From Escherichia phage vB_EcoM_VR26, in sequence record NC_028957.1: 64,000 nt of DNA; one strand, 5' to 3'. Below, one piece after another: positions 4,054 through 28,716 of the stretch. Within the stretch, counting starts at the first letter, position 1, and the number at the start of each line of letters is the position of its first letter. The notes below the pieces were generated by a model. The model saw only the letters and a list, made by a program, of their open reading frames with translations. It was not told where the DNA came from and did not search any database. The position numbers and the translations under genes were made by a program.

Positions 4054-4434
4054 TTAACCTTCATCAACAATAGTATGGGTGTTGGCATTAACAATCTGCC
4101 ACCAGTCAAAACGGTTAGAACCATATTGAGGCTTATTCTCGTTTTCTTTAATGATATCGCGCAGTTCGTCTTCAGTCGCAGCTTTTGCGATTAGGTCTGC
4201 ATAACCACCCCGGGGATAATAGCTATCGCCAGCAAAGAGTAAAAAGTTTGTTTTGATATTCTTGAATTCTTCAAGAGTAATAACCGTTCCAGATGGTTGA
4301 ACAATATCTACGTAACTATACCCCAATTGCTGGGCTTTATCTACCGCTTCAAGCAGGGTGTCATGCGCCCACCCAATTTGACACTCTGGTTTGTCAGATG
4401 GATTGGCCTGATAATCCGCATACACTTTATACAT
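4054..4434 (-). CDS. hypothetical protein
   Basis: Start moved to the in-frame ATG at 4434 (MYKVYADYQ), which follows an AGGTGA SD; the track start at 4482 is not an ATG. Confidence 0.45.
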   Translation of the reverse strand: MYKVYADYQANPSDKPECQIGWAHDTLLEAVDKAQQLGYSYVDIVQPSGTVITLEEFKNIKTNFLLFAGDSYYPRGGYADLIAKAATEDELRDIIKENENKPQYGSNRFDWWQIVNANTHTIVDEG

Positions 4435-7942: not shown

Positions 7943-8776
7943 TTATGAATTTCTCCATACTTTCTGGGAAGAGAATCTTTTGCCTTTCGACATAAATTGT
8001 TGCAATGGAAGCATAACAACGTTTGCCCAGTCGCTGGGCTTGATTTCAGTGATAGTACCTTTTATATTACCAGGTATATATGCTTTAATCATCTGGTCAG
8101 CCCCTTTAAATCCCTTCACCTTTGACCAATCAATCTTCAGATGAGTCTTGTTCGTAATCGTAGGAGTATTAGCATATTGCTTAAGCAGTTCCTCAAGGAA
8201 CTCTTGACGTGCCTTCGGTGGAATATAGTGCAAGTTCAAACCATACATCAAATTGTGCTTACCCAACCCAAGATAAATGATTAACGGGTATTTGTCCCAG
8301 TACGGAAGAGTATCCTTATGCTTTGCATCATAGATATAAGCATAAATCTTACCTGGTTGAGGTTTAGCCGTTACGTGCCCTCTGACAGCTTTCTTAATTG
8401 TCTCTGCGAACCATCTGGCAGATTTGGTGTTGCTTGCAGCGCCTTCGTTAGCAATCTTATCTCTTATGCTCTTTCTAAAGCTATTCACCATTATTAGCTG
8501 GCGTTCAGCCTTCGTAAGTTTACCAGCAGGTTTCTTTTTGAGTTTGGATACTTTATAAGCAGTCTGAATTCTCGAATGATATCTTGACATGCTTTTGGTA
8601 AAGGTTGAATAGTTGATTCCTTTCTCTTCAGCAAACTTTTTCGAGGTCATTCCCTTTTCTTTTGCTGTATAAAATTCAACCCCTATCTCAACCCATTGTT
8701 GTTCGGATTTACTGGGTTTCGGACCCGGTTTATCTGCAGATTCATTGATAAATGTAAAAATACTCATCCTTTCCAT
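7943..8776 (-). CDS. 2: gp2 DNA end protector
   Basis: 277 aa; synteny and similarity to T4 gp2. Confidence 0.85.
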
Positions 8777-9213
8777 CCTAATTTTTTCAGTGAGTTTTCA
8801 GTGATTATCCTAAACGTTATACCCATTTTATCTGCCGTAGATTGTGCAGCTTTCCATTTGTCCGAGTTAACAGCCCAGGTATACATCTCGTTAATAAATC
8901 TCTTTTTGCTCGCAGCGGTATTATTAACAGGTTTGGTTGGTGGTCTTGTTTCTTTTAATGGCTTAACTTCGAAAAAGAACTGTTGTCCTGTATCAAACTT
9001 AACCCAGAAATCCATATAATACCTGCGCTTTTTACCATCGGCATTGCTAAAGTAAGGGATGATAACAGTCTCAGAACCCCATTGAACAACGTTCGGATGG
9101 TTGTCGAGCCATCTCATAAGCCAGGCCTCCCAGCTTGACCGGTATTGTATTTTCTTCCAGTCGCCCTTATATTTTTCTATATTAGTGGGCTTAAATTTCC
9201 CGGAGTATGCCAT
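8764..9213 (-). CDS. 4: gp4 head completion protein
   Basis: 149 aa; GGAGG SD; synteny with T4 gene 4. Confidence 0.85.
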
Positions 9214-9249: not shown

Positions 9250-9261
9250 AATGGAGGCTTT

Positions 9262-9864
9262 ATGCTTTTTTCATTTTTTAACCCAATTGATTATGATGCT
9301 AAAACAATCAGAAAAAACCCTGCATCATTGACGAAAGAAGACGTCTTAAGCATTCCAATGACTGACATTTTCAGAAATTATCGTGCTTACTTTGATAAGG
9401 TCGCGGTCAATTATACACCAAAAACCTATTACATTGCCGGAGCTCCACGCCCGGAAGAATTAGCATATCAGCTATACGGCAACACTCAGCTCTATTGGGT
9501 TCTCCTTATGCTCAATGATATCTATGACCCGTATTATGGTTGGCTTTGTACCCAAGAAGCATCGTATCAAGCATCAATTCAGAAATATTCAAATGTCGGG
9601 GGCAATCAGGTCCTTTATCATGTGAACGAAAACGGTGAGAAGTTCTGGAACCTTGTTTCTTATCCTGATAATCCATACACCTGGTACGATAAAGGCGATA
9701 AAAACAAATTATATCCGCAATACGAAGGTCCATTAGCCGCAGTGGATATCTATGAAGATGCTATTCGCAAAAATGAATACAAACGAGAAATAAAGATAAT
9801 CGACCCTAACGATATCGAATCTTTTATTTCGGCGCTTATTCGTGAGATGGAGAAGTCGCTATGA
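9262..9864 (+). CDS. 53: gp53 baseplate wedge protein
   Basis: In-frame ATG at 9262 with GGAGG SD (the track start at 9232 is TTG); 200 aa; followed by gene 5. Confidence 0.85.
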   Translation: MLFSFFNPIDYDAKTIRKNPASLTKEDVLSIPMTDIFRNYRAYFDKVAVNYTPKTYYIAGAPRPEELAYQLYGNTQLYWVLLMLNDIYDPYYGWLCTQEASYQASIQKYSNVGGNQVLYHVNENGEKFWNLVSYPDNPYTWYDKGDKNKLYPQYEGPLAAVDIYEDAIRKNEYKREIKIIDPNDIESFISALIREMEKSL

Positions 9865-11603
9865 TTAATATGTCAGATAGTGTAAGCTGGTTCGTCGGTG
9901 TGGTTGAAGACCGAATGGACCCACTGCAACAAGGCCGTGTGCGCGTTCGCGTGTGGGGGATGCATCCTTACGAAAAATCACAGGGACCTGTTAAAGGTAT
10001 AAGAACCGAAGACTTGCCATGGATGTCTGTGCTGATGCCAACATCATCTGCGTCGGTTTCTGGAATTCAAACTGCAATGACTGGTATGGTACCAGGGACT
10101 CAGGTATATGGTCACTTTTTAGACAAGTGGAAGCTCAACGGTCTTGTCATTGGTACATACGGTTCAGCCTCAAGACAAAAAGCAAATCCTAACGAAGGCT
10201 TCTCTGACCCTACGGGACAATACCCGCTTTATGTTGGTAATGATGCTGCGGCGCTTAACCGGGGCGGTGAAGTCGGTTATGATGCCACTTCAAACGTAAT
10301 CCAAGATTCAAACCTTGATTTAGGTATTAACCCCGATGGTCTTGATTTAAGTCAGGTTAAGCCAGACGATAACCCTAATTTCACAATTGAAAATATGCTT
10401 CACCGTGATGAGGGACTTCGTCTGAAAGTATATTGGGACACCGAAGGTTATCCGACTGTCGGGATTGGCCACCTTATTACACCACAACCTATTAGAGATA
10501 TGAATCAGATAAACAAAATATTATCTAATCAAATAGGCCGTGAAGTTAAAGGTAACCCTGGTGCAATATCAATGGACGAGGCTTCTGCATTATTCCAGGA
10601 AGACCTTAAGAAAGTACAAAGTGATATAGGTAGGCATAGTGTTGTAGGTCCGGTTTACAATAAAGAAAACCGTTCGAGACAAATGGCTCTTGAAAACATG
10701 GCTTTCCAAATGGGATTAGGTGGATTGGCTAAATTCCGTGGAATGCTTGGTGCAATGTTAATAGGCGATTATAAAAAGGCATTTGAGGAAGCTCGTAATT
10801 CAGTATGGTTTAACCAAACTAAAGGGCGCGCGTCAAGGGTATCAATGATTATCCTCACCGGTAATATGGAATCATATGGTATTATGGCTCCTAAAGAAAG
10901 ATCATTTAATGGTCGAATGTACCGAATGATTGAAACATTTAGTACCAAGGCTGGGGAAGACCCGGCTGACCCGTGGACCCCAGAAGATACAAGGATTCTG
11001 TTTAAAGAACCAGAATCAAGTTACAAAGGCGAATATCCTTACATACAGACAATGCAAACCGAAGGCGGTCACATTCAGGAATTCGATAACACTCCTGGGC
11101 AAGAACGTTATCGACTGATTCACCCGACTGGCTCCTACGAGGAAGTTGCACCAGATGGTCGTAAGACTTCGAAGACAGTAGCCGATGGTTATTATATGAC
11201 CCAGGGTGATTCGAGTACTTATGTCGGTGGTAATAATAAAGTCAACGTTGGTGGTGATGAAACCTATTACAATATGGCTAACGTTCGCAGACAAACCGAT
11301 GGAAACGAAAGCATTCATATCAGAGGGAATGAAACCAAAACTATCGAAGGTGACGGTACAATTATTGTCAAAGGTAATGTAAGTATTCTGGTCGAAGGTA
11401 ATGCTGAAATAACTGTTAAAGGTGATGCAAAAACTCTTGTCGAAGGTAACCATGATTATACAGTAAATGGTAATGTCAAATGGTCCGTTAATGGAAACGT
11501 TGATATGACTGTAGCTGGCAACTGGTCCGAGACTATGGCTTCAATGAGTTCTATTGCATCTGGACAATATACTATTGATGGTTCGAGGATTGACATTGGC
11601 TAA
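9861..11603 (+). CDS. 5: gp5 baseplate hub and tail lysozyme (cell-puncturing device)
   Basis: N-terminal NWFVGVVED...RVRVR, lysozyme motif GYPTVGIGHLI, C-terminal VxGN beta-helix repeats; 580 aa. Confidence 0.95.
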   Translation: MINMSDSVSWFVGVVEDRMDPLQQGRVRVRVWGMHPYEKSQGPVKGIRTEDLPWMSVLMPTSSASVSGIQTAMTGMVPGTQVYGHFLDKWKLNGLVIGTYGSASRQKANPNEGFSDPTGQYPLYVGNDAAALNRGGEVGYDATSNVIQDSNLDLGINPDGLDLSQVKPDDNPNFTIENMLHRDEGLRLKVYWDTEGYPTVGIGHLITPQPIRDMNQINKILSNQIGREVKGNPGAISMDEASALFQEDLKKVQSDIGRHSVVGPVYNKENRSRQMALENMAFQMGLGGLAKFRGMLGAMLIGDYKKAFEEARNSVWFNQTKGRASRVSMIILTGNMESYGIMAPKERSFNGRMYRMIETFSTKAGEDPADPWTPEDTRILFKEPESSYKGEYPYIQTMQTEGGHIQEFDNTPGQERYRLIHPTGSYEEVAPDGRKTSKTVADGYYMTQGDSSTYVGGNNKVNVGGDETYYNMANVRRQTDGNESIHIRGNETKTIEGDGTIIVKGNVSILVEGNAEITVKGDAKTLVEGNHDYTVNGNVKWSVNGNVDMTVAGNWSETMASMSSIASGQYTIDGSRIDIG

Positions 11604-11637
11604 TATAATCCCAATGAGCACTGATTTAGGAGACTCC

Positions 11638-12135
11638 ATGGAAGGAGCTTCAATCGATGTTACGTTTACCGCTCAATTAGAAACAAACGAAACATTAGTC
11701 GAAATAAATATAACTGAATATGAGGCCACCCCTGGCGTTAATGTTGAGGGCAATCATCTTTATGGTGTTTATGAATCCGTGTTCGGATTTGCAGATGATG
11801 CGCTTAAATATCGGCTTAACGATGAATTCAAAACTGCTGCTTCATGGGAAGAACTTCCTGTGGATAAGAGTACTCAATTGTATCTCTGGAGGGCCCCAGC
11901 GAGCCTCCAGAAGGTCTTTTCATACACAGTAACCCTAACCTATGACTTTCAAGAAGAGAGCTCTGGAGGAGACACAGGGAACTCTGGTGGTAGTAATAGT
12001 CGGGCAGGCAACGAGACAGACCCACCTCCGGCCCCAGTAAGAAAGACAATGACAAAAGTTTACACAAAAACTATCGTCGGTAACTGGAGCCGATGGGCAG
12101 ATAAATTGCGTTCATACGTATACGCGAGGGATTAA
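11638..12135 (+). CDS. gp5.1-like hypothetical protein
   Basis: Start chosen at the ATG at 11638 (AGGAG SD 5 nt upstream); an in-frame ATG at 11614 is also possible. Confidence 0.55.
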   Translation: MEGASIDVTFTAQLETNETLVEINITEYEATPGVNVEGNHLYGVYESVFGFADDALKYRLNDEFKTAASWEELPVDKSTQLYLWRAPASLQKVFSYTVTLTYDFQEESSGGDTGNSGGSNSRAGNETDPPPAPVRKTMTKVYTKTIVGNWSRWADKLRSYVYARD

Positions 12136-12429
12136 ATGGCTGGATTAAGTTTTAATCAATGTGTTACAGCAGGTCACGAAGCATGGCCACCGACTGTAAT
12201 CAATGCAACTCAAGGTAAAGTATTCACCGGGGGAATTCCTGTGTTAGTTGCCGGGGACCCTATTACCGAACATACCGAAATTAAAAAACCATATGAAACC
12301 CACGGTGGAGTAACACAACCAAGAACTCCGAAGGTATTTGTTACCGGTAAGAAAGCTGTTCAAATGGCGGACCCGATTTCATGTGGTGATACTGTGGCTC
12401 AAGCTTCAGGAAAGGTGTTCATAAAATGA
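12136..12429 (+). CDS. 5.4: gp5.4 PAAR-repeat spike-tip protein
   Basis: 97 aa, same length as T4 gp5.4; directly downstream of gene 5. Confidence 0.85.
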
Positions 12430-13103
12430 ACAAAGAATTTAATTTTGTATATGTAACTACAAACCTAGAAAATGGTAAAAAGTATATAGGCAAACATTCT
12501 ACTGATGATATGTTTGATGGATATTACGGTACAGGGGAGCTTATCAAAAAAGCTTATAAAAAATATGGAAAGGATTTGTTTGAGACAAAAATAATAAAAT
12601 TTTTTGATACTGAAGATGAGGCTTACGACTACGAAGAATTTTTAGTAGACGAATCTATAATTTATGATGATAGATATTATAATATAGATTTGGGTGGCAA
12701 AGGAAGTATGCGAGGAAGAAAGCATAAGGAATCTTCAAAGAAGCAAATATCAGACAAAATGAAGGGTAGGTCAAAGCCACCACGAAGTAAAGAATATATT
12801 GAAAATTTTGAAAAAGCTATGGCCAAAAGGAGAAAACCTAAGTCACCTCCTAAACCGAGGGTTTTTGTTAGAGGAGAAGAACATCCTTTATATAAAAGAC
12901 CCAGACCGCAATCTGTTATTGACCTATGTAAACTTAATAATAGAAAACACCCCATATGGCAATCATACGATATTTTATTCAAATTATGGAAAGAAAATGA
13001 TAAGCCAGGTTGGAGAAAAATGACCCGATTAGCCATTGAAAACGGATTTCCAAATACGGCTTATGATAAAATGATAAAACAATTTAAACAGGATTCAGAA
13101 TAA
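12426..13103 (+). CDS. GIY-YIG homing endonuclease (Seg-like)
   Basis: FVYVTTN...KYIGKHS GIY-YIG motif, Seg-like [21 protein letters not shown]3-like [12 protein letters not shown]; inserted between 5.4 and 6. Confidence 0.8.
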
Positions 13104-15049
13104 TGGCTACTCCTACGAATTACCAATTAACAAGAACCGTTAACGCTATCCCAAAAGTATTTGTGGGAGCTACGTTTGAAGAAATTAAAAAGAACATCAT
13201 CGACTGGTTATCAAGCCAGGATGAATTTAAGGATTATGATTTCGTAGGTTCGCGAATGAACATCCTGATTGATATGCTTGCATATAATACATTGTATATG
13301 CAGCAGTTTGCTAATACAGCGGTTTATGAAACATTCATCGGAACTGCAAACTTAAGGTCTTCGGTTGTTCAGGCGGCACAGGATAATGGCTATCTTCCAT
13401 CTTCTCGCTCAGCTGCAAAGACTTCTGTTATGTTGACGTGTTCCCATGCTCTGCAGCCATCGAATATTGAAATACCTCGTGGAACTAAGTTCCTGGCTTA
13501 TGCTCGGGATACATCAGCTGACCCTTATGTTTTTGTTACCACGGAAAATGTTATCGCAGTTAAAGATATTAACAACCAATACCTTCCGATTGTATCTCTG
13601 GCACAAGGTCGTATTATTCGTACAGAACTTTTATATGACCCGAAACAACCTATTCTTATTCGTGACCCGGATATCGACCGCAAAGAAGTTAAGTTATACG
13701 TGAACGGCGTTGAGTGGGTTGACTGGACGAACAAATCAATGGTTCACGCTGGTTCGACTTCCACCATATTTTATATGCGTGAAACAATCGATGGTTATAC
13801 GGAATTTTTCTTCGGTGAAGGTGAATCTACTAAATCTGTAGCCGGCGGCGTTATGGAAGCCAACTATATTGGCGGTCTTAAACCTGTGCAAGATTCGACA
13901 ATTGTTATTGAGTATCTTCGTACATCAGGAGCGGATGCTAACGGTGCAGTAGATTTCAGTTATGCTGATACGTTGTCTTATATCACAGTGGATAAGATTA
14001 CCGAAAACTACAATGACGACCCTGATTATGTCGGTGCCGATGGTGGTGGTGACCAGGAAGATATCGAACGAATCCGTGAACTGGCTGTTGTTAAACGTGA
14101 AGCGCAGATGCGTGCTGTCACCGGAACGGATTATGATACCTTCGTATCTGAAAGATTCGGCTCAATCGTGCAAGCCGTACAGACGTTTACGGACGCCAAT
14201 AAACCTGGGTATGCGTTTATATCAGTTAAGCCTAAATCGGGCCTATATCTCACTGCAGTGCAGCGTGAGGACATACAGAACTACCTGGCGGATTTCAACG
14301 TATCAACAATTACACCATCGGTTATTTCTCCAGATTATTTGTTCCTTAGACATAATATCAAAGTATCTTATGCACTGAACAAATTACAAGAATCTGAACA
14401 ATGGTTGCAAGCGCAAATCATTAATCAAATTGACCGTTATTATATCGATGAAGTCGAAATCTTTAACAGAAGTTTTGCTAAGTCAAAAATGCTCACATAT
14501 GTTGATAATACTGACCATAGTATTCTTGGTTCGTCTGCAACTATTTCGATGGTGCGTGAAGTCCTGAACTTCTTTAAGACACCAGAATCCGGCATTAAAT
14601 ACTATAACCAGTATGGCAACCGTTCCGTCGAATCAAGTGAATTTGAATTTGTTCCGACCACAGGTGAAGCCTATAACGTTCGCATTGTTGCAACTGATAA
14701 AGATTCTCGTGGTGATGGTAAAATGGTAATTGGTCCATTCCGTCAGGGCGATGTTATCGAAAACGTAAACATCCAGCCTTATCTACAAGATGACTTTAAT
14801 AAAATGGAAGCTCCGGCTGACCAAACAGTTTATTACGCAATCGGCGAAATTGACTATTATTCTGATTATATTTTTTGGGATATCGCTGCGATTGGATTGA
14901 CCTCCGACCGCTTTGAGGTTCAATCAATCGAACTTTATGCAAGTCCTAACCAAGATAATATATACACGCAAGATGGTTCGCTGATTGTATTTGAGAATGA
15001 CCTTCGTCCCCAATATACAAAGATTGACCTCGAACCAATTACACTATAA
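13103..15049 (+). CDS. 6: gp6 baseplate wedge protein
   Basis: 648 aa; synteny and similarity to T4 gp6. Confidence 0.9.
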   Translation: MATPTNYQLTRTVNAIPKVFVGATFEEIKKNIIDWLSSQDEFKDYDFVGSRMNILIDMLAYNTLYMQQFANTAVYETFIGTANLRSSVVQAAQDNGYLPSSRSAAKTSVMLTCSHALQPSNIEIPRGTKFLAYARDTSADPYVFVTTENVIAVKDINNQYLPIVSLAQGRIIRTELLYDPKQPILIRDPDIDRKEVKLYVNGVEWVDWTNKSMVHAGSTSTIFYMRETIDGYTEFFFGEGESTKSVAGGVMEANYIGGLKPVQDSTIVIEYLRTSGADANGAVDFSYADTLSYITVDKITENYNDDPDYVGADGGGDQEDIERIRELAVVKREAQMRAVTGTDYDTFVSERFGSIVQAVQTFTDANKPGYAFISVKPKSGLYLTAVQREDIQNYLADFNVSTITPSVISPDYLFLRHNIKVSYALNKLQESEQWLQAQIINQIDRYYIDEVEIFNRSFAKSKMLTYVDNTDHSILGSSATISMVREVLNFFKTPESGIKYYNQYGNRSVESSEFEFVPTTGEAYNVRIVATDKDSRGDGKMVIGPFRQGDVIENVNIQPYLQDDFNKMEAPADQTVYYAIGEIDYYSDYIFWDIAAIGLTSDRFEVQSIELYASPNQDNIYTQDGSLIVFENDLRPQYTKIDLEPITL

Positions 15050-15068
15050 GCCTCTTCGGAGGCTTTTT
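15050..15068 (+). terminator. intra-operon hairpin (possible partial terminator) between genes 6 and 7
   Basis: GCCTC TTCG GAGGC followed by TTTTT. Confidence 0.4.
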
Positions 15069-15077
15069 AAGGAAACC

Positions 15078-18000
15078 ATGATGAGTGTTAAAGCCCCTTA
15101 TGTAACCAGCTTACGGATTGATAAACTATCTGCTAACCAGGTTAGCATAAAATGGGATAATGTTGGCGCCAACTTTTATTATTTTGTTGAGATTGCTCCG
15201 ACAAAAGAAAATGGTGTTGCTATTCCAGAAGAAAATCTGTTATGGAGGAATTTAGGTTATACTCCAGACAATGAATGGTTCGAACAAGATTTTATTCGTC
15301 CAGTATCATTTTACAAAATGCGTGTTGCCGTTGCAGCAATGGGTTTTGAGCAATCTGATTGGGTTTATACCGAAGAATTTGAAACCTTTGCAACTAACGC
15401 ATACACATTTGAACACATGCGTGAGTTTACATTAACAAATAAATTCATTGAAGAAAAATTCGCAAACAACAACCAGGCTTATATTAACTTTAATAATGAT
15501 GCGATTACGGCATCGTTGATGTCCGAAGATTTTAGCTTTACTCCTGCATATTCTCATTTGTCTTCAATTTCAAACTATGTATTAAAGGAAGACCAATATC
15601 ACGAAATTCAGGGTAGCATTCAGCCAGTGTGTAACGATGTTAATCGTACAATGATTGCTGAACTTGGTGGCGTGTTGTATTTGTTTGAACGATTCCAGAC
15701 AACTGTCAAAGTCTCCAATGATAAAGGACAGAACTGGTATTATGTGAAATTGTTTAATGACCGTATCGGCAACCCCGTATCGCGCACAATTTATTATCAA
15801 TCAGATACGACAACTTATGTGCTTGGGTATGACCGAATTTTTTACGGTCGTAAATCAAGTGACGTAAGATGGTCTGCTGATGATGTTCGATTCAGTTCTC
15901 AGGATATAACATTTGCAAAAATTGGTTCGGATATCAATCTCGGATTCGATATTGAAATATTTGGCACGTATGCAAGACTCCCTGCTTATATCTCAACAAT
16001 TGCTGAAGCAATTACTACGACTGATTCCATGATTTACGTTTCTGGCCGTGACCGCGTGTACAAAGCTAAATCTTCTGATGCTCCGATTGATAATGACCCT
16101 AACTCTCCAACGTTTGGTGAAAAATTGTTTGAAGCTGGTTTTAGCACAATAAGCGGCAACCCAAAAGCTGTTTGTTATAAGATGGATTCAATTGATGGTG
16201 AAGTGTTTGCATTAATCACAGGTGAAGTAAAAGAAGAACGTCAAGACCCGACTAAACCTGAAAACGTTGTCGATTCACTATCGAAGGGCGTTTATAAATT
16301 AAATACTGATACCGATACATGGACACGAGTTTTTGGTAACACAGAAGACGAACGTCGCCGTATTGAACATGGTTACACAAGCATGTCAACTGATGGAATT
16401 GAACTTTTTATCAGTTCAAGTAATTTCCATTATTCCGTGGAACCAGATACTGCATTACCTGAAAAATACCCTGATGAAGTTAATAGCGCAGTCAAATATG
16501 TGTACGACGAACAATGGATACATGACAAGCATTATTTGATGATGAGTTTTAGGTCAAATAAAGATTCAGGCTGGGAAGAATTTAAACCAGGTCGAATGAC
16601 TTATTACGCTGAACCATTTTTCAACTGGTCAAGACGCGATGATACTCGTTGTTGGATTACGACTTCTGACCGAGCTCTGGTTGTGTACAACGATATGTTG
16701 TATCAAAAAATTATCGATACATTCGGCGGTTCATCCCCGGAACGTATTGTGCATGAATATTGGAACAAAGGTCAAGTAACAGTAACAGCGCCTAACATCG
16801 AATTTAATGGCTTTAAAAAATATGCTTCCGGTATTATGCTGCACAAAAATACTGGGGAACTTATTGGTTATTTTGAATTCGACTATCGTATGCGTGATGA
16901 AGTTCGCCTTATCTGGAAACCAAAAGAAATTATGTTCACTGCTGAATTACAAAACCAGGAACACGATATTCCATGGACTCCTGATAATGATAATCAGGAA
17001 AAAGACCCGGACTTGCGCCCGTTGTTAACTAAAATGGTACCGGATAGTTACTTACTACAAGATTCCAACTTTGAAAAATTCTGTGAATACTATTTGCAGT
17101 TTATCAGTGATGGTTCTGGTACGTATTACAACAACCTTTTAAATCTTATTCGCAACCAATATCCTCGTGAAGAAGATGCATGGGAATACTTGTGGAGTGA
17201 GATGTACAAAAGAAACATTTATTTGTCAAAAACCAAGCGTGATGAAGTTGTAAGGTTTTTCGAAGCTCGCCAATCAGATTTCTGGGCAACCAAGGGGACT
17301 GAAGCGTCTTACAAATTCTTGTTTAAATTGTTGTACAATGAAGACGTTGAAATTGATATCGAATCCAAGAATGGAACCGAATACGACATAATTGTTGAAT
17401 CTGATAATATCAGTGAAGATATCGTAGGGCAAACCATTTACACCCCAACTGGCCGTAGTAACGTAACTTATATGGAGCGTGACTATAAACAGGGTAAATT
17501 GAGATGGCGTATAACAATCCATAACTTGCTTGGACGCTTTATTGTCGGTCAAGAAATTAAATCCGAACGAACTTCTTTCGAAGGTATGATTGTTCAGGGT
17601 GTTCGCGGTAAAGAATTGTTAAGCAACAATATTGACTATATCAACCGAAATCGTTCTTATTATGTGATGACTATTAAATCAAGTCTGCCTACCTCCCGTT
17701 ATCGCAATGACGTTTTGCGTTTTGTGCATCCGGTTGGATTTGGATTTGTTGGAATTACATTATTGACAATGTTTGTTAACGCGGGTTTGTCATTAAAACA
17801 CACTGAGACAATTATCAACAAATTGAACAACTATCGTTGGTCGTCTGGTATTCCGTCTGAATGGTGTGACCGTATCGCAGTTATCGGTGTTGATAGTAAT
17901 ATTGAGAAAAACCCAGTCACTGGTGAAGCAGTATATAATATTGCTCCTAATGCTGGATTGCCGTTCCCATTACCGGCCGATTACGATGCAGAAAACGATT

Positions 18001-18176
18001 TCTCGGATTTCCATGGAACTCTTCCTTCTGAACGTCGTAAAAAGTACAGTCCATTGTTTGACCAGTCTGCGGTTACATTTTCTAACTGGCGCAATTTGGT
18101 TAATCAACGTCTTAAGGATGATATTGGAAATCCACGTGACCCTAGAGACCCGACACAGGTAAAAGTAAATGAATAA
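15078..18176 (+). CDS. 7: gp7 baseplate wedge protein
   Basis: Start at the ATG at 15078 after AAGGAAACC; 1032 aa; the upstream part of the track ORF overlaps the gene 6 end. Confidence 0.9.
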   Translation: MMSVKAPYVTSLRIDKLSANQVSIKWDNVGANFYYFVEIAPTKENGVAIPEENLLWRNLGYTPDNEWFEQDFIRPVSFYKMRVAVAAMGFEQSDWVYTEEFETFATNAYTFEHMREFTLTNKFIEEKFANNNQAYINFNNDAITASLMSEDFSFTPAYSHLSSISNYVLKEDQYHEIQGSIQPVCNDVNRTMIAELGGVLYLFERFQTTVKVSNDKGQNWYYVKLFNDRIGNPVSRTIYYQSDTTTYVLGYDRIFYGRKSSDVRWSADDVRFSSQDITFAKIGSDINLGFDIEIFGTYARLPAYISTIAEAITTTDSMIYVSGRDRVYKAKSSDAPIDNDPNSPTFGEKLFEAGFSTISGNPKAVCYKMDSIDGEVFALITGEVKEERQDPTKPENVVDSLSKGVYKLNTDTDTWTRVFGNTEDERRRIEHGYTSMSTDGIELFISSSNFHYSVEPDTALPEKYPDEVNSAVKYVYDEQWIHDKHYLMMSFRSNKDSGWEEFKPGRMTYYAEPFFNWSRRDDTRCWITTSDRALVVYNDMLYQKIIDTFGGSSPERIVHEYWNKGQVTVTAPNIEFNGFKKYASGIMLHKNTGELIGYFEFDYRMRDEVRLIWKPKEIMFTAELQNQEHDIPWTPDNDNQEKDPDLRPLLTKMVPDSYLLQDSNFEKFCEYYLQFISDGSGTYYNNLLNLIRNQYPREEDAWEYLWSEMYKRNIYLSKTKRDEVVRFFEARQSDFWATKGTEASYKFLFKLLYNEDVEIDIESKNGTEYDIIVESDNISEDIVGQTIYTPTGRSNVTYMERDYKQGKLRWRITIHNLLGRFIVGQEIKSERTSFEGMIVQGVRGKELLSNNIDYINRNRSYYVMTIKSSLPTSRYRNDVLRFVHPVGFGFVGITLLTMFVNAGLSLKHTETIINKLNNYRWSSGIPSEWCDRIAVIGVDSNIEKNPVTGEAVYNIAPNAGLPFPLPADYDAENDFSDFHGTLPSERRKKYSPLFDQSAVTFSNWRNLVNQRLKDDIGNPRDPRDPTQVKVNE

Positions 18177-19173
18177 TTCAACTGTAGTTTACCGTTCGAT
18201 AATTACCTCCAAATTTCGAACGGAAAAAATGTATAATTTCTATAAAATGATTGGCAACGAACCGGACGAAAACACTATGTATGTGACGTTCGGACGCGCT
18301 GAACCCTGGGCATCGAATGAGAATGACCCGGGGTTCGCCCCTCCTTATCCTGTTGATACAGCGCAAGGTGTTGAAGATACATGGACAAATATGATGGGCG
18401 CCGTTAAGGTTTACAAATCAATGCTTGACTGTGTTGTCCCTCGCAAAGACTGGGGTGATATAAGATATCCTAATCCGTTGAACTTCCAAGTCGGTGAAAT
18501 TGTTGTAGCTAACAGCGCACCATATAACCGAACAGATGTTGGTAAAGGTTGGATGGTTTATCGTTGTGTTGATGTTCCGGATGTTGGTACTTGCTCCATT
18601 TATTCAATTATCAATAAAGAAGAATGCTTAAAACTCGGTGGTCGCTGGACTGCAGAATTTAACTCAACCCGTGCCCCCGCAGGTACAGGTGATACCGAAG
18701 GAAGAGTTGATATGGGCGATGGTTATCTGTGGGAATATTTGTATGAGATTCCACCGGATGTGTCTATCAACCGATGCACAAACGAATATATCGTTGTTCC
18801 ATGGCCGGAAGAAATTGAGGAAGACCCTGTTCGTTGGGGATATGCAGACAATATCAGCTGGCAGCAAAATGATTATGGATTGATTTATCGAATTAAAGGT
18901 TATACGATTCGATTTAAAGCATTCATGGATTCCATTTACTTCCCGGAATTTAGTTTACCAGGTAACAAAGGTTTCCGTCAGCTGTCGATTATTGCTAACC
19001 CATTGGAAGTAAAAGTTCACCCTAATGACCCAAATATCAAAGCAATCAAAGAATACTATGATGCGATTGATTTGGACCGTCATTCTGGGGAAATGATTTA
19101 CATGGAAAACCGTCCGCCGATTATCCGTGCAATGGACCAGACAGAAGAAGTTAATATTATTTTTGAATTCTAA
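18169..19173 (+). CDS. 8: gp8 baseplate wedge protein
   Basis: 334 aa, identical in length to T4 gp8. Confidence 0.9.
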   Translation: MNNSTVVYRSIITSKFRTEKMYNFYKMIGNEPDENTMYVTFGRAEPWASNENDPGFAPPYPVDTAQGVEDTWTNMMGAVKVYKSMLDCVVPRKDWGDIRYPNPLNFQVGEIVVANSAPYNRTDVGKGWMVYRCVDVPDVGTCSIYSIINKEECLKLGGRWTAEFNSTRAPAGTGDTEGRVDMGDGYLWEYLYEIPPDVSINRCTNEYIVVPWPEEIEEDPVRWGYADNISWQQNDYGLIYRIKGYTIRFKAFMDSIYFPEFSLPGNKGFRQLSIIANPLEVKVHPNDPNIKAIKEYYDAIDLDRHSGEMIYMENRPPIIRAMDQTEEVNIIFEF

Positions 19174-19174
19174 C

Positions 19175-19199
19175 AAGGGACCTTTGGGTCCCTTTTTTA
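19175..19199 (+). terminator. rho-independent terminator after gene 8
   Basis: GGGACC TTTG GGTCCC followed by TTTTTT. Confidence 0.7.
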
Positions 19200-19202
19200 T
19201 TT

Positions 19203-19210
19203 TATAAATA
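19203..19210 (+). promoter_or_regulatory. late promoter TATAAATA for gene 9
   Basis: Exact TATAAATA about 28 nt upstream of the gene 9 ATG. Confidence 0.65.
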
Positions 19211-26361: not shown

Positions 26362-27300
26362 ATGGCAACTGAATCATACAACCCGAAACAATTAAAAGAT
26401 GCAATCCTTCGTCGTCTTGGTGCTCCAATCACGAATATCGAAGTTACGACCGACCAAGTCTATGATTGCATCCAGCGTGCATTAGAATTATACGGTGAAT
26501 ATCATTATAATGGATATAACAAAGGTTATCAGGCTTTTTATATCGGTCATGATGAAGTTTCACAACAGAAATTCCGCGATGGTGTTTTCGATTTAAAAGG
26601 ACGTAATATTTTTGCAGTAACGCAGATTATTCGTACTAACGTCGGTTCATTAACTTCAATGGACGGACAAGCCACATATCCATGGTTTACAGATTTCGTT
26701 CTGGGCCTTGCCGGGATTAACGGTGGGATGGGTAGCTCGTGTAATAGCTTTGGTCCAAATGCTTTTGGTGCAGACCTTGGTTATTTTACACAGCTTATGC
26801 AATATCGTTCAATGATGCAAGACCTGATGGTTCCGCTTCCGGATTACTGGTATAACGATGATACCGAACAACTTAAAATTATGGGCAACTTCCGTCAGGG
26901 GGATGTGATTGTAATTGAAGTTTATACCAAATCGTATAACGGTGTGGATTCAATGGTTGGCAATACAGCTGGTTATGGTTTTGCCTCGGCTGATTGTGAT
27001 AATCCGTGGAATGCCGGTGCACAGTGGGATAACCCGGCGCGCAGAATAAGCGGTATGAGAGCTGGTGAGGACCTTGGACTTCAAGATGGTGCATACAACA
27101 ACCGTTGGGTGAAAGACTATGCCACGGCGCTTGTTAAGGAAGTTAACGGCAACGTATTGGCTAAACACCAAGGGATGATGATGCCAGGTGGAGTTACGGT
27201 CGATGGTGTTCGTTTAATCGAAGAAGCTCGTATGGAAAAAGAACGTCTCCGCGAAGAACTTGACCTGCTGGATGCACCGACTCCTATATTGGTGGGCTAA
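26362..27300 (+). CDS. 13: gp13 neck protein
   Basis: 312 aa; synteny. Confidence 0.9.
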
Positions 27301-27935
27301 TGGCTACATATTATAGACTTTATGTGTCGACATTTGAAACATCTAATGGGGTAATGGTGTATGGCGGTAAACGTCATTCACCATATGAAGATTTTAAAGC
27401 AGATAGTTATTTTGGGTCGGGTACTATTGTTAAACGAGCTAAACAAAAATATGGAAGAAAATGTTTAGTCGATATTACCTGGTCTAAACCTTTTGAATCC
27501 CCTGCTCTATTAAAGGAAGCCGAGGCTTTACTAGTCAGTGAACTTTTAGAAAGTTTTGATAATTGTGCAAATTTACACCCAACAGGGGGAGGTGGCCCGG
27601 AAGGTTATAGTCGTCCAGAAGATTCCCCTGCTTTTGGTAAAAAGAGAACAGCAGAATCAAGAAAACGAATGTCGGAAGCCGCAAAACAAAGGGAATGGTC
27701 CGAAGAGGGATTAAAACGTCGTAAAGAGGCAACAGCTCGAATGTGGATTGATTTTAAGGACCGACATCCTGATTTTTCTGATGATAAAAATCCGGCCGCA
27801 CGTAAAATTATTACCGGCGACCTAGAATTTTGTACCGGAAGAAAATGTGCAGAATATTATTCGATAACTCCGGCTGCAGTCATTTACAGATGTAAAAGTA
27901 CAGCCGAAAAATGGAAATTATGGAATTATGCGTAA
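27300..27935 (+). CDS. Seg-like GIY-YIG homing endonuclease, degenerate motif
   Basis: YRLYV...[26 protein letters not shown] and NUMOD3-like [13 protein letters not shown] parallel the 12426 ORF; inserted between 13 and 14. Confidence 0.65.
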
Positions 27936-28716
27936 TTCTTATGATGCAAGCTTATTCGCCCGACTTGAAGATGGAACCGGGTATGACAATACAAACTCGT
28001 CAGAGATACTCAACCAATATGTAAACTTTATGCATCATGAAAATACCCAGACTTTAGCCGATGTTATTGTTGCTGAAAGTATTCAGATGCGCGGAATGTC
28101 TCTCTATTACATCCCAAGACAATTCGTTAAACCAGATTTGTTATTCGGCGAAGACCTCCAGAGCAAATTTGATAAAGCATGGAAATTTGCTGGTTATCTG
28201 GATACATTCGATGCATATCAGGGTGATGGTTCCATCTTCAGTAAATTTGGTATGACTGTGAATGATGAAATCACAGTGTCGATTAACCCTAATCTGTTTA
28301 AACATCAATGTAATGGAACCGAACCTATTGCCGGGGATTTGATTTATTTCCCTCTCGATAACAGTCTGTTCGAAATAACCTGGGTACAGCCTTATGACCC
28401 ATTCTATCAGGTAGGTCAAAACGCCATCCGTAAAATCACCGCGAGCAAATACATTTACTCCGGAGAAGAGCTTAAACCTGAATTGCAACGAAATGAAGGT
28501 ATTAATATTCCAGAATTCAGTGAGCTCGATTTGCAACCAATCCACAATATCGATGGCCTTACAGATATCAGTGATATCCCTTATGCAGAATCTGATGAGA
28601 TTAACGCAGAAGCAGCTGAATATGTTAAACCATATTTTGTGCAGAATGGTCGTGGGATTGAGTCTCCTCCTAAGGCAAAACAGGATAGCTTTGACGACAG
28701 TTTCTTTGATGAATAA
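27928..28716 (+). CDS. 14: gp14 neck protein
   Basis: 262 aa; synteny. Confidence 0.9.

Follow-up and report, generated by a model that had tools for sequence, protein, structure and literature searches.

Does the open reading frame that separates genes 5.4 and 6 in the baseplate operon of Escherichia phage vB_EcoM_VR26 encode a mobile endonuclease, and how did it come to occupy this junction? The window analysed here is a stretch of 64,000 nucleotides from record NC_028957.1. It belongs to a Gaprivervirus-type T4-like coliphage, with TH15 as the closest match (~97% identity); gene 5 is mosaic, and between 10800 and 11600 it is VR7-like, not TH15-like. The ORF occupies positions 12426..13103 of the + strand (678 bp, 225 aa). 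It shares bases with both neighbours: the ATG (12426-12428) with the TGA stop of gene 5.4 (ATGA), and the TAA stop (13101-13103) with the gene 6 ATG (TAATG). A preliminary description, made from the sequence alone, had placed both the ORF and its overlap with 5.4 exactly here. The frame is free-standing, has the same orientation as its neighbours and separates two genes that adjoin each other in related phages, giving a late baseplate operon in the order 53, 5, 5.1, 5.4, seg-like ORF, 6, 7. The features to which we refer are the following.

12136..12429, + strand: gene 5.4, PAAR spike-tip protein, 97 aa (Pfam PAAR_motif, E 2.1e-10; PHROG 281, E 1.3e-36)
12400..12425, + strand: left edge of the cassette, the recoded final ~25 nt of gene 5.4, from comparison with insert-free alleles
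12409..12417, + strand: Shine-Dalgarno-like GGAAAGGTG, a sequence reading with a putative function
12416..12432, + strand: 7-bp hairpin around the seg start codon, a tentative element from a ViennaRNA fold
12426..13103, + strand: seg-like homing endonuclease gene, 225 aa, 31.4% GC
12426..12701, + strand: GIY-YIG catalytic domain, aa 1-92
12714..12767, + strand: NUMOD3-like motif, G97-G114, from alignment with PF07460-bearing homologs, SegA and SegC
12909..13097, + strand: C-terminal four-helix domain, aa 162-224, presumed DNA-binding/target-specificity module
13090..13093, + strand: AGGA Shine-Dalgarno of gene 6, inside the last seg codons, a sequence reading
13100..13195, + strand: 96-nt identical block at the start of gene 6, from comparison of insert-free Gaprivervirus and Dhakavirus
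13103..15049, + strand: gene 6, baseplate wedge protein, 648 aa (five gp6 Pfam domains, E 1e-35 to 1e-45)

We put at roughly 0.78 the probability that the ORF is a free-standing T4 Seg-type GIY-YIG homing endonuclease gene, closest to SegA, that has colonised the 5.4/6 junction. What was known before is automatic annotation, as 'homing endonuclease' in phage CLB_P2 and as 'putative endonuclease' in X20 and LC53; the insertion site and the lineage are new. Literature searches on CLB_P2, on gp5.4 together with homing endonucleases, and on X20/CHI14 found no paper describing the gene, its site or its activity.

Domains and relatives of the encoded protein

Taken singly, the protein gives a weak but real GIY-YIG signal in sequence profiles. 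Pfam SegE_GIY-YIG (PF19835) reaches 26.1 bits against a cut-off of 25, its best stretch covering residues 2-24 only; Pfam GIY-YIG (PF01541) scores 22.0 bits, marginally below its cut-off of 22.6, and TIGR01453 stays at 45.5 bits, short of its cut-off of 56.05. The wider evidence for homing endonuclease identity is unambiguous. PHROG 314 'homing endonuclease' matches residues 1-220 (E 4.8e-43), and a profile of 23 homologs matches the I-TevI catalytic domain in the PDB (E 1.4e-4), where a phmmer search with the single protein returned nothing at E <= 1. The BFVD viral structure library yields 193 significant matches, and among the best 50 of these almost every named entry is a Seg-like, GIY-YIG or intron-type endonuclease. 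The preliminary description had called the ORF a GIY-YIG homing endonuclease and regarded the lack of any GIY-YIG profile hit as fatal to that reading. The SegE_GIY-YIG score above cut-off, PHROG 314 and the family-profile match to I-TevI bear the identification out, with GIY-YIG evidence at the level of both profile and fold.

The catalytic domain comprises ~90 residues with a beta-beta-alpha-beta-alpha core that holds the GIY and YIG strands. Conserved within it are Y9, Y20, G22, H24, E70 and N86, of which Y9, Y20, E70 and N86 align with I-TevI Y6, Y17, E75 and N90 and are invariant, or nearly so, across the 23 homologs. In the HMM alignment His24 stands at the position of the catalytic arginine of I-TevI, R27. 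The same histidine is found in T4 SegA (YYGTHSTDD) and SegC (YVGVHKTSN), which are active enzymes (PMC2988022), and because these two share it, the substitution looks like a trait of the Seg subfamily and not a defect.

Beyond the catalytic domain, a low-confidence hinge (aa 93-99) precedes the NUMOD3-like motif, within which a helix is predicted at residues 102-112; a second helix (aa 122-135) and a basic, Pro-rich stretch follow. A NUMOD3-like motif had been proposed from the letters alone. G97-G114 does align with homologs bearing Pfam NUMOD3 (PF07460) and with SegA and SegC, but the window protein itself has no Pfam NUMOD3 match at E <= 0.1. The C-terminal four-helix domain (aa 162-224), presumed to be the DNA-binding/target-specificity module, is common only to the proteins of the 5.4|6 clade and T4 SegA. 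From N- to C-terminus, the protein comprises an intact catalytic domain of the I-TevI type, a NUMOD3-like linker and a C-terminal domain like that of SegA. For the seg genes of X20 and the metagenomic locus L015, the sole pair whose synonymous sites are not saturated, dN/dS is ~0.12, so the protein is maintained by selection.

Judged by sequence, the closest characterised relative is T4 SegA, not SegE, despite the Pfam name and the annotation of X20. SegA is homologous over its full length (33% identity, residues 3-221, E 3e-31), and the match spans the catalytic domain, the NUMOD3-like linker and the C-terminal W..W..G..E.G.P..Y..F domain. The two proteins have 221 aa (SegA) and 225 aa, and both genes are free-standing and co-oriented with their neighbours. 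They differ in location, segA lying at uvsX/beta-gt and the window gene at 5.4|6 in the late baseplate operon, and at 33% identity their target specificities almost certainly differ as well. T4 SegC resembles the window gene in context: its gene has the same operon and orientation, is promoterless and overlaps its upstream ORF (PMC2988022), and its target is the 5.1/5.3 junction (PMC2988022), a slot one to two genes upstream of 5.4|6. However, SegC has only 140 aa and no C-terminal domain, and its 37% identity is confined to the catalytic domain and the first NUMOD3 motif, where homology ends. The Serratia phage X20 protein (ARW58132.1) and its LC53 counterpart, annotated as 'putative endonuclease (segE)', are 64-66% identical to the window protein and occupy the same slot. 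The 'segE' note of X20 reflects a profile name rather than orthology, and relatives at the SegE position match the N-terminal half only. The gene is a SegA-like paralogue, and it is not SegA, SegC or SegE. The likeness to I-TevI, which is encoded by the T4 td intron, extends from the catalytic fold and key residues to the overall plan, both proteins being modular, with a catalytic domain, a flexible linker carrying a NUMOD3-type helix and a C-terminal DNA-binding module.

Distribution, insertion site and recent transfer

The gene is sporadic among close relatives. The insert is present in two of the 82 Gaprivervirus/Dhakavirus records that match the flanks, and both represent one phage, Dhakavirus CLB_P2, whose 'homing endonuclease' (UNI73014.1) is 100% identical, as protein and as gene, to that of the window's Gaprivervirus-like genome. 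A tblastn search of 50,697 phage records found homologs of >60% identity in three phages only, CLB_P2, Serratia X20 and LC53. The latter two are the carriers among eight winkleviruses; CHI14, CBH8, Vettismorki, Virsaitis27, Kc304 and Gravdalen are without the gene and have flanks that are 97.6-98.7% identical. Including isolates and independent metagenomes, the exact protein is encoded on 11 contigs and lies in the PAAR/gp6 slot every time. The gene occurs in the metagenomes SRR19268270-72, ERZ28620828, ERZ27280701 and ERZ22666027. Where the slot is empty, genes 5.4 and 6 are 8 nt apart (Gaprivervirus, Dhakavirus, T4) or overlap (Winklervirus).

These comparisons answer two points raised in the preliminary description. 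It knew of no homing endonuclease at this position in T4, and the T4 5.4/6 junction is indeed empty, with its 8-nt spacer; segC is nearby, however: it belongs to the same operon and separates 5.1 from 5.3, which puts it one to two genes upstream of the 5.4/6 slot. It also proposed aligning the junction with insert-free T4-like genomes, and saw the presence of the same ORF in most T4-like phages as evidence against a mobile insert. In the alignment the insert is absent from 80 of the 82 related records, as it is from six of the eight winkleviruses. The 53-6 operon was already a seg neighbourhood (Table 1, PMC2988022), and novelty is confined to the 5.4|6 slot. The paper on LC53 states that homing endonucleases vary among winkleviruses and says nothing more on the gene.

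Every full-length homolog that we recovered (56-100% identity: CLB_P2, X20/LC53 and the metagenomic loci L015, L016 and L017-19) sits in the 5.4|6 slot, even where gp6 is only 62-78% identical. The next-closest proteins have only the catalytic half in common and are located between uvsY and uvsW, and thus beside uvsW like T4 segE, which lies at inh/uvsW (PMC2988022). As a negative control, 80 generic Seg-like loci were taken from an alignment-based scan of IMG/VR, and none of them adjoins gp5, gp5.4 or gp6. That scan recovered distant relatives only, mostly matching the catalytic domain alone, and an IMG/VR scan with the single protein found no relatives. Such constancy of slot is the pattern that would be expected if the C-terminal domain dictates the target. 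In one metagenomic lineage (L017, L018) ORFs occur in both the segC slot and the 5.4|6 slot, indicating that segC and the 5.4|6 gene are independent elements.

The identity of the insert points to recent movement. It is the same in 678 of 678 bases in the window and in CLB_P2, with flanks that drop to ~70-82% identity within a few hundred bases. Across eight insert-bearing loci, which represent three flank backgrounds differing by 2-21%, the insert contains no variable site. Relative to the window, the flanks differ at 50 positions per 2100 nt for the background typified by locus L009 and at 441 per 2100 nt for the CLB_P2 type. At these rates, ~16 and ~142 differences would be expected in 678 nt, and none is observed. 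A 100% identical insert in such divergent backgrounds implies recent transfer between genera. An older transfer is indicated by the pair X20 and L015, in which the seg genes are 80.8% identical, gp6 65.4% and gp5 45.7%. The seg tree is incongruent with the trees of the neighbouring genes, and the base composition of seg appears foreign relative to its flanks, at 31.4% GC compared with 45.8% in the 600 nt upstream and 40.2% downstream.

Immediately to the left of the insert the shared sequence breaks up. All eight insert-bearing loci are identical from 12400 on, and the window differs from the remaining ones at 12396 and 12399. States between 12363 and 12399 are patchy, the L009-type loci being Dhakavirus-like at 12396 and 12399 and CLB_P2 being Gaprivervirus-like at 12375-12387, a pattern compatible with transfer from Gaprivervirus to Dhakavirus or the other way.

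Cassette edges and putative expression signals

In insert-free alleles the junction reads ...GTC TTT ATA AAA TAG GAAATAAA ATG GCT. Insert-bearing alleles carry six substitutions in the tail of gene 5.4 (12405 C>T; 12409-10 TC>GG, changing Ser93 to Gly; 12414 A>G; 12417 C>G; 12420 T>C), all within its last 22 nt, and their 5.4 stop codon is TGA in place of TAG. TH15, VR7 and JS98, which lack the insert, show the alternative states throughout. Analogous recoding is seen when X20 is compared with insert-free CHI14 and Vettismorki: it includes GTG TTC codons, and the X20 protein ends in ...FLNG, not ...FIK. Because the 5.4 tail has been recoded in two independent genera, it belongs to the mobile unit.

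The recoding may serve expression of the inserted gene. Four of the six substitutions (12409, 12410, 12414 and 12417) create GGAAAGGTG at 12409..12417, the AAGGTG of which ends 8 nt 5' of the seg ATG, at a place where insert-free alleles have CATCAAAAGTC. We infer that GGAAAGGTG acts as a Shine-Dalgarno-like signal for seg. In L015 and L016 the counterpart is AAGGTG or GGGTG with a spacing of 7-8 nt; X20 and L017 have a weaker form of the motif. In the ViennaRNA minimum-free-energy fold of 12386-12465, a perfect 7-bp hairpin (TGTTCAT-AAA-ATGAACA) encloses the seg ATG, and two of the recoding substitutions are bases of its stem. As modelled, this hairpin may, tentatively, limit translation to ribosomes coming from 5.4. 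We rejected it as a regulator conserved across the clade, since it is missing from X20-type alleles.

At the other end, an AGGA lies in the last seg codons, 9 nt before the gene 6 ATG, and substitutes for the AGGA in the insert-free spacer TAGGAAATAAAATG, which is the Shine-Dalgarno of gene 6 there. The KQFKQD tail retains cAGGA in X20, L015 and L016. Scanning the + strand from 9250 to 19203 for the late promoter consensus TATAAATA gave no match, and sigma-70-like and terminator-like sites show no excess over shuffled sequences. With the promoter scans empty or at background, seg appears to be a promoterless cassette in a late polycistronic message, and a promoter of its own was rejected on the same grounds. 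An intron-encoded origin was likewise rejected, no Rfam family having been found in 11500-14000.

Downstream of the insertion point the alleles show a second unusual feature. Insert-free Gaprivervirus (VR7, TH15) and Dhakavirus (JS98) are perfectly identical over 96 nt, which consist of 4 nt upstream of gene 6 plus the first 92 nt of that gene and begin exactly at the insertion point. The surrounding ~6 kb are 77-79% identical, with next longest identical runs of 47-56 nt, and codon-block shuffles reached 96 nt in 0 of 5000 trials (maximum 60). Within this block, identity is at least 95% for each of the 82 Gaprivervirus/Dhakavirus records. Tequatrovirus is only 72-73% identical and Winklervirus also differs, so that no universal nucleotide-level constraint acts on the block sequence. 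It may serve the endonuclease as a conserved recognition sequence or homology arm, or be the footprint of repeated conversion between genera. All compared phages are identical from 13104 to 13194, which masks the right-hand limit of co-conversion.

Proposed homing and its alternatives

How would such an element spread? Seg enzymes leave 2-nt 3' overhangs at their double-strand breaks and cause co-conversion and marker exclusion, and several seg genes, for example segC, segF and segG in T4, are promoterless cassettes that overlap the upstream ORF (PMC2988022). We propose that seg would be transcribed without a promoter of its own on the late 53-5-5.1-5.4-6 message, and that its translation, at a low level, would be coupled to that of 5.4 by the ATGA overlap, the new Shine-Dalgarno-like sequence and possibly the start-codon hairpin. 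In a mixed infection with an insert-free relative, the enzyme would break both strands at or near the empty 5.4/6 junction. The break is predicted within a span from about -26 to +92 nt relative to the insertion point, because a conversion tract should include the break and the shared tract spans those limits; later recombination may have trimmed the shared tracts. Repair by phage recombination from seg-bearing genomes would then copy seg, the recoded 5.4 tail and short flanks. The outcome would be intronless homing, seen genetically as local marker exclusion. Genomes that carry seg would probably be immune to cutting: their junction is interrupted by the insertion, and their 5.4 tail departs from the insert-free one at six bases. 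If the recognition site lay wholly in the first 92 nt of gene 6, the filled allele would lack such sequence immunity. The ribosome-binding site of gene 6 lies in the 3' end of seg, so imprecise loss of seg would presumably be costly.

The homing reading has strong indirect support from sequence comparison, because the insert is identical in two genera and every full-length homolog lies in one slot. It has to be weighed against a passenger gene, spread by ordinary homologous recombination through the conserved brackets formed by the 5.4 tail and the 96-nt block, with a nuclease that is inactive here or cuts elsewhere. The flanks do hold unusually conserved homology arms, which could permit transfer without a break by the seg enzyme, and these phages are mosaic elsewhere, as in the VR7-like, not TH15-like, stretch of gene 5 (10800-11600). 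We nevertheless regard passive spread as unlikely: homologs that have diverged to 56-81% among themselves stay in one slot, which is hard to explain without site-specific targeting, the left shared tract of only ~26 nt is far below typical neutral recombination patches, and purifying selection (dN/dS 0.12) together with intact catalytic residues argues for an active enzyme.

An active enzyme need not home. It might instead benefit the phage, by cutting the DNA of competing relatives and so excluding them or through local amplification or recombination, without effective homing, as for T4 SegD, which reportedly, by a title cited in PMC10448857, does not home its own gene. A role of this kind would fit with the position of the gene 6 Shine-Dalgarno inside seg, which favours retention, and SegB is reported, in work from 2026, to drive amplification of anti-defence loci (PMC13096335). 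A domesticated nuclease is still a rather improbable explanation of the present gene. The gene itself moves, as its identical copies on three flank backgrounds in two genera show, and its rarity (of 50,697 records, three phages have a >60% homolog) speaks against a function of broad use. That the ORF is the decaying remnant of a homing endonuclease gene, its protein now inactive, might be read from the curated profiles that stay below threshold and from the His in place of the canonical Arg. We consider this highly improbable, because the frame is full-length with all family-invariant residues and a dN/dS of ~0.1, the same His occurs in active SegA and SegC, and the gene spread recently.

A homing endonuclease is conceptually what a specialist would predict for a T4-like phage. 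The element adds to the T4-family set a homing endonuclease lineage with a precisely mapped new insertion site, 5.4|6, and a candidate new sequence-specific GIY-YIG nuclease. It also appears to provide an unusually clean natural record of recent inter-genus homing, with 0 differences in 678 bp and flanks that are ~20% different. Because the insert-free target, the limits of the shared tract and the putative self-protecting changes are known, the cleavage site, co-conversion and immunity rules are directly testable. In mixed infections of therapeutic coliphage cocktails, such an element would bias the inheritance of markers in the baseplate region.

A more far-reaching version of the homing reading treats the locus as a three-part cassette, which overwrites the C-terminal codons of the PAAR protein for its own start, supplies the ribosome-binding site of the essential gene 6 and, through repeated homing and co-conversion between Gaprivervirus and Dhakavirus, has made the first 92 nt of that gene uniform in the two genera, leaving a 96-nt 'landing pad' without synonymous differences. 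We regard this combination as possible and rather doubtful. If true, it would mean that a selfish nuclease shapes the sequences of virion structural genes and the flow of genes between genera in the baseplate operon.

Sequence immediately downstream of the 5.4/6 insertion point

Directly downstream of the point at which the seg-like GIY-YIG endonuclease gene (the 12426 ORF) is inserted between genes 5.4 and 6, insert-free Gaprivervirus and Dhakavirus genomes share a 96-nt stretch of perfect identity (window 13100..13195), against an overall identity of 77-79%. The 5' edge of the run coincides exactly with the insertion point, no synonymous differences between these insert-free genomes occur over its 31 codons, and the run lengths in 5000 shuffles all fall far below it. 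In L015, an insert-bearing metagenomic locus, the gp6 N-terminus (4184..4300) is altered right after the ATG, and reads MSSLKKQVNAIP rather than MA..NYQLTRTVNAIP. Given this difference, the sequence immediately 3' of the endonuclease gene appears to have been remodelled in L015.

Other nuclease-like genes in the window and its relatives

A second Seg-like ORF lies among the neck genes and overlaps both of its neighbours.

26362..27300, neck gene 13, 5' neighbour of the Seg-like ORF
27300..27935, + strand, Seg-like ORF of 211 aa, between neck genes 13 and 14
27928..28716, neck gene 14, 3' neighbour of the Seg-like ORF

With the 12426 ORF as tblastn query, the two proteins are 28% identical (aa 8-178, E 6e-8), and the GIY-YIG N-terminus of the second is divergent (YRLYVST...VYGGKRHS). 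It looks like another free-standing endonuclease, inserted into a structural operon. Beside the baseplate operon is what seems to be a small nuclease-like gene, as the precomputed Pfam annotation assigns Tn7_TnsA-like_N (PF08722) to its counterpart at loci L008-L010.

8764..9213, - strand, ORF of 149 aa, directly upstream of gene 53 and on the opposite strand to it

In two metagenomic T4-like contigs, the segC-type slot (5.1/5.4) is occupied by an extra 204-aa ORF that matches NUMOD3.

L017 2140..2754, between 5.1 and 5.4
L018 1756..2370, between 5.1 and 5.4

Both contigs also carry the 5.4/6 endonuclease, and thus have two predicted mobile nuclease genes within ~1.6 kb. At the uvsY/uvsW locus of L020 (1045..3601), a split uvsW-like helicase gene adjoins a relative of the endonuclease. 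Weak HINT/intein-splicing matches in one part of the split gene point to a possible intein next to the seg gene.

Gene 5 mosaicism and the start of gene 5.1

The C-terminal part of gene 5 (window 10800..11600) is a recombination mosaic. VR7 matches the window at 97-100% identity from 11000 to 11600; identity to TH15 is just 78-82% at 10800-11000 and 11200-11600. Outside the mosaic, TH15 is the nearest genome, with 98-100% identity on either side.

11554..12135, gene 5.1, mechanical ORF of 193 aa with a TTG start

Gene calls in near-identical contigs give gene 5.1 as 165 aa (e.g., L009 3213..3710), so that it probably begins at an ATG downstream of the TTG.
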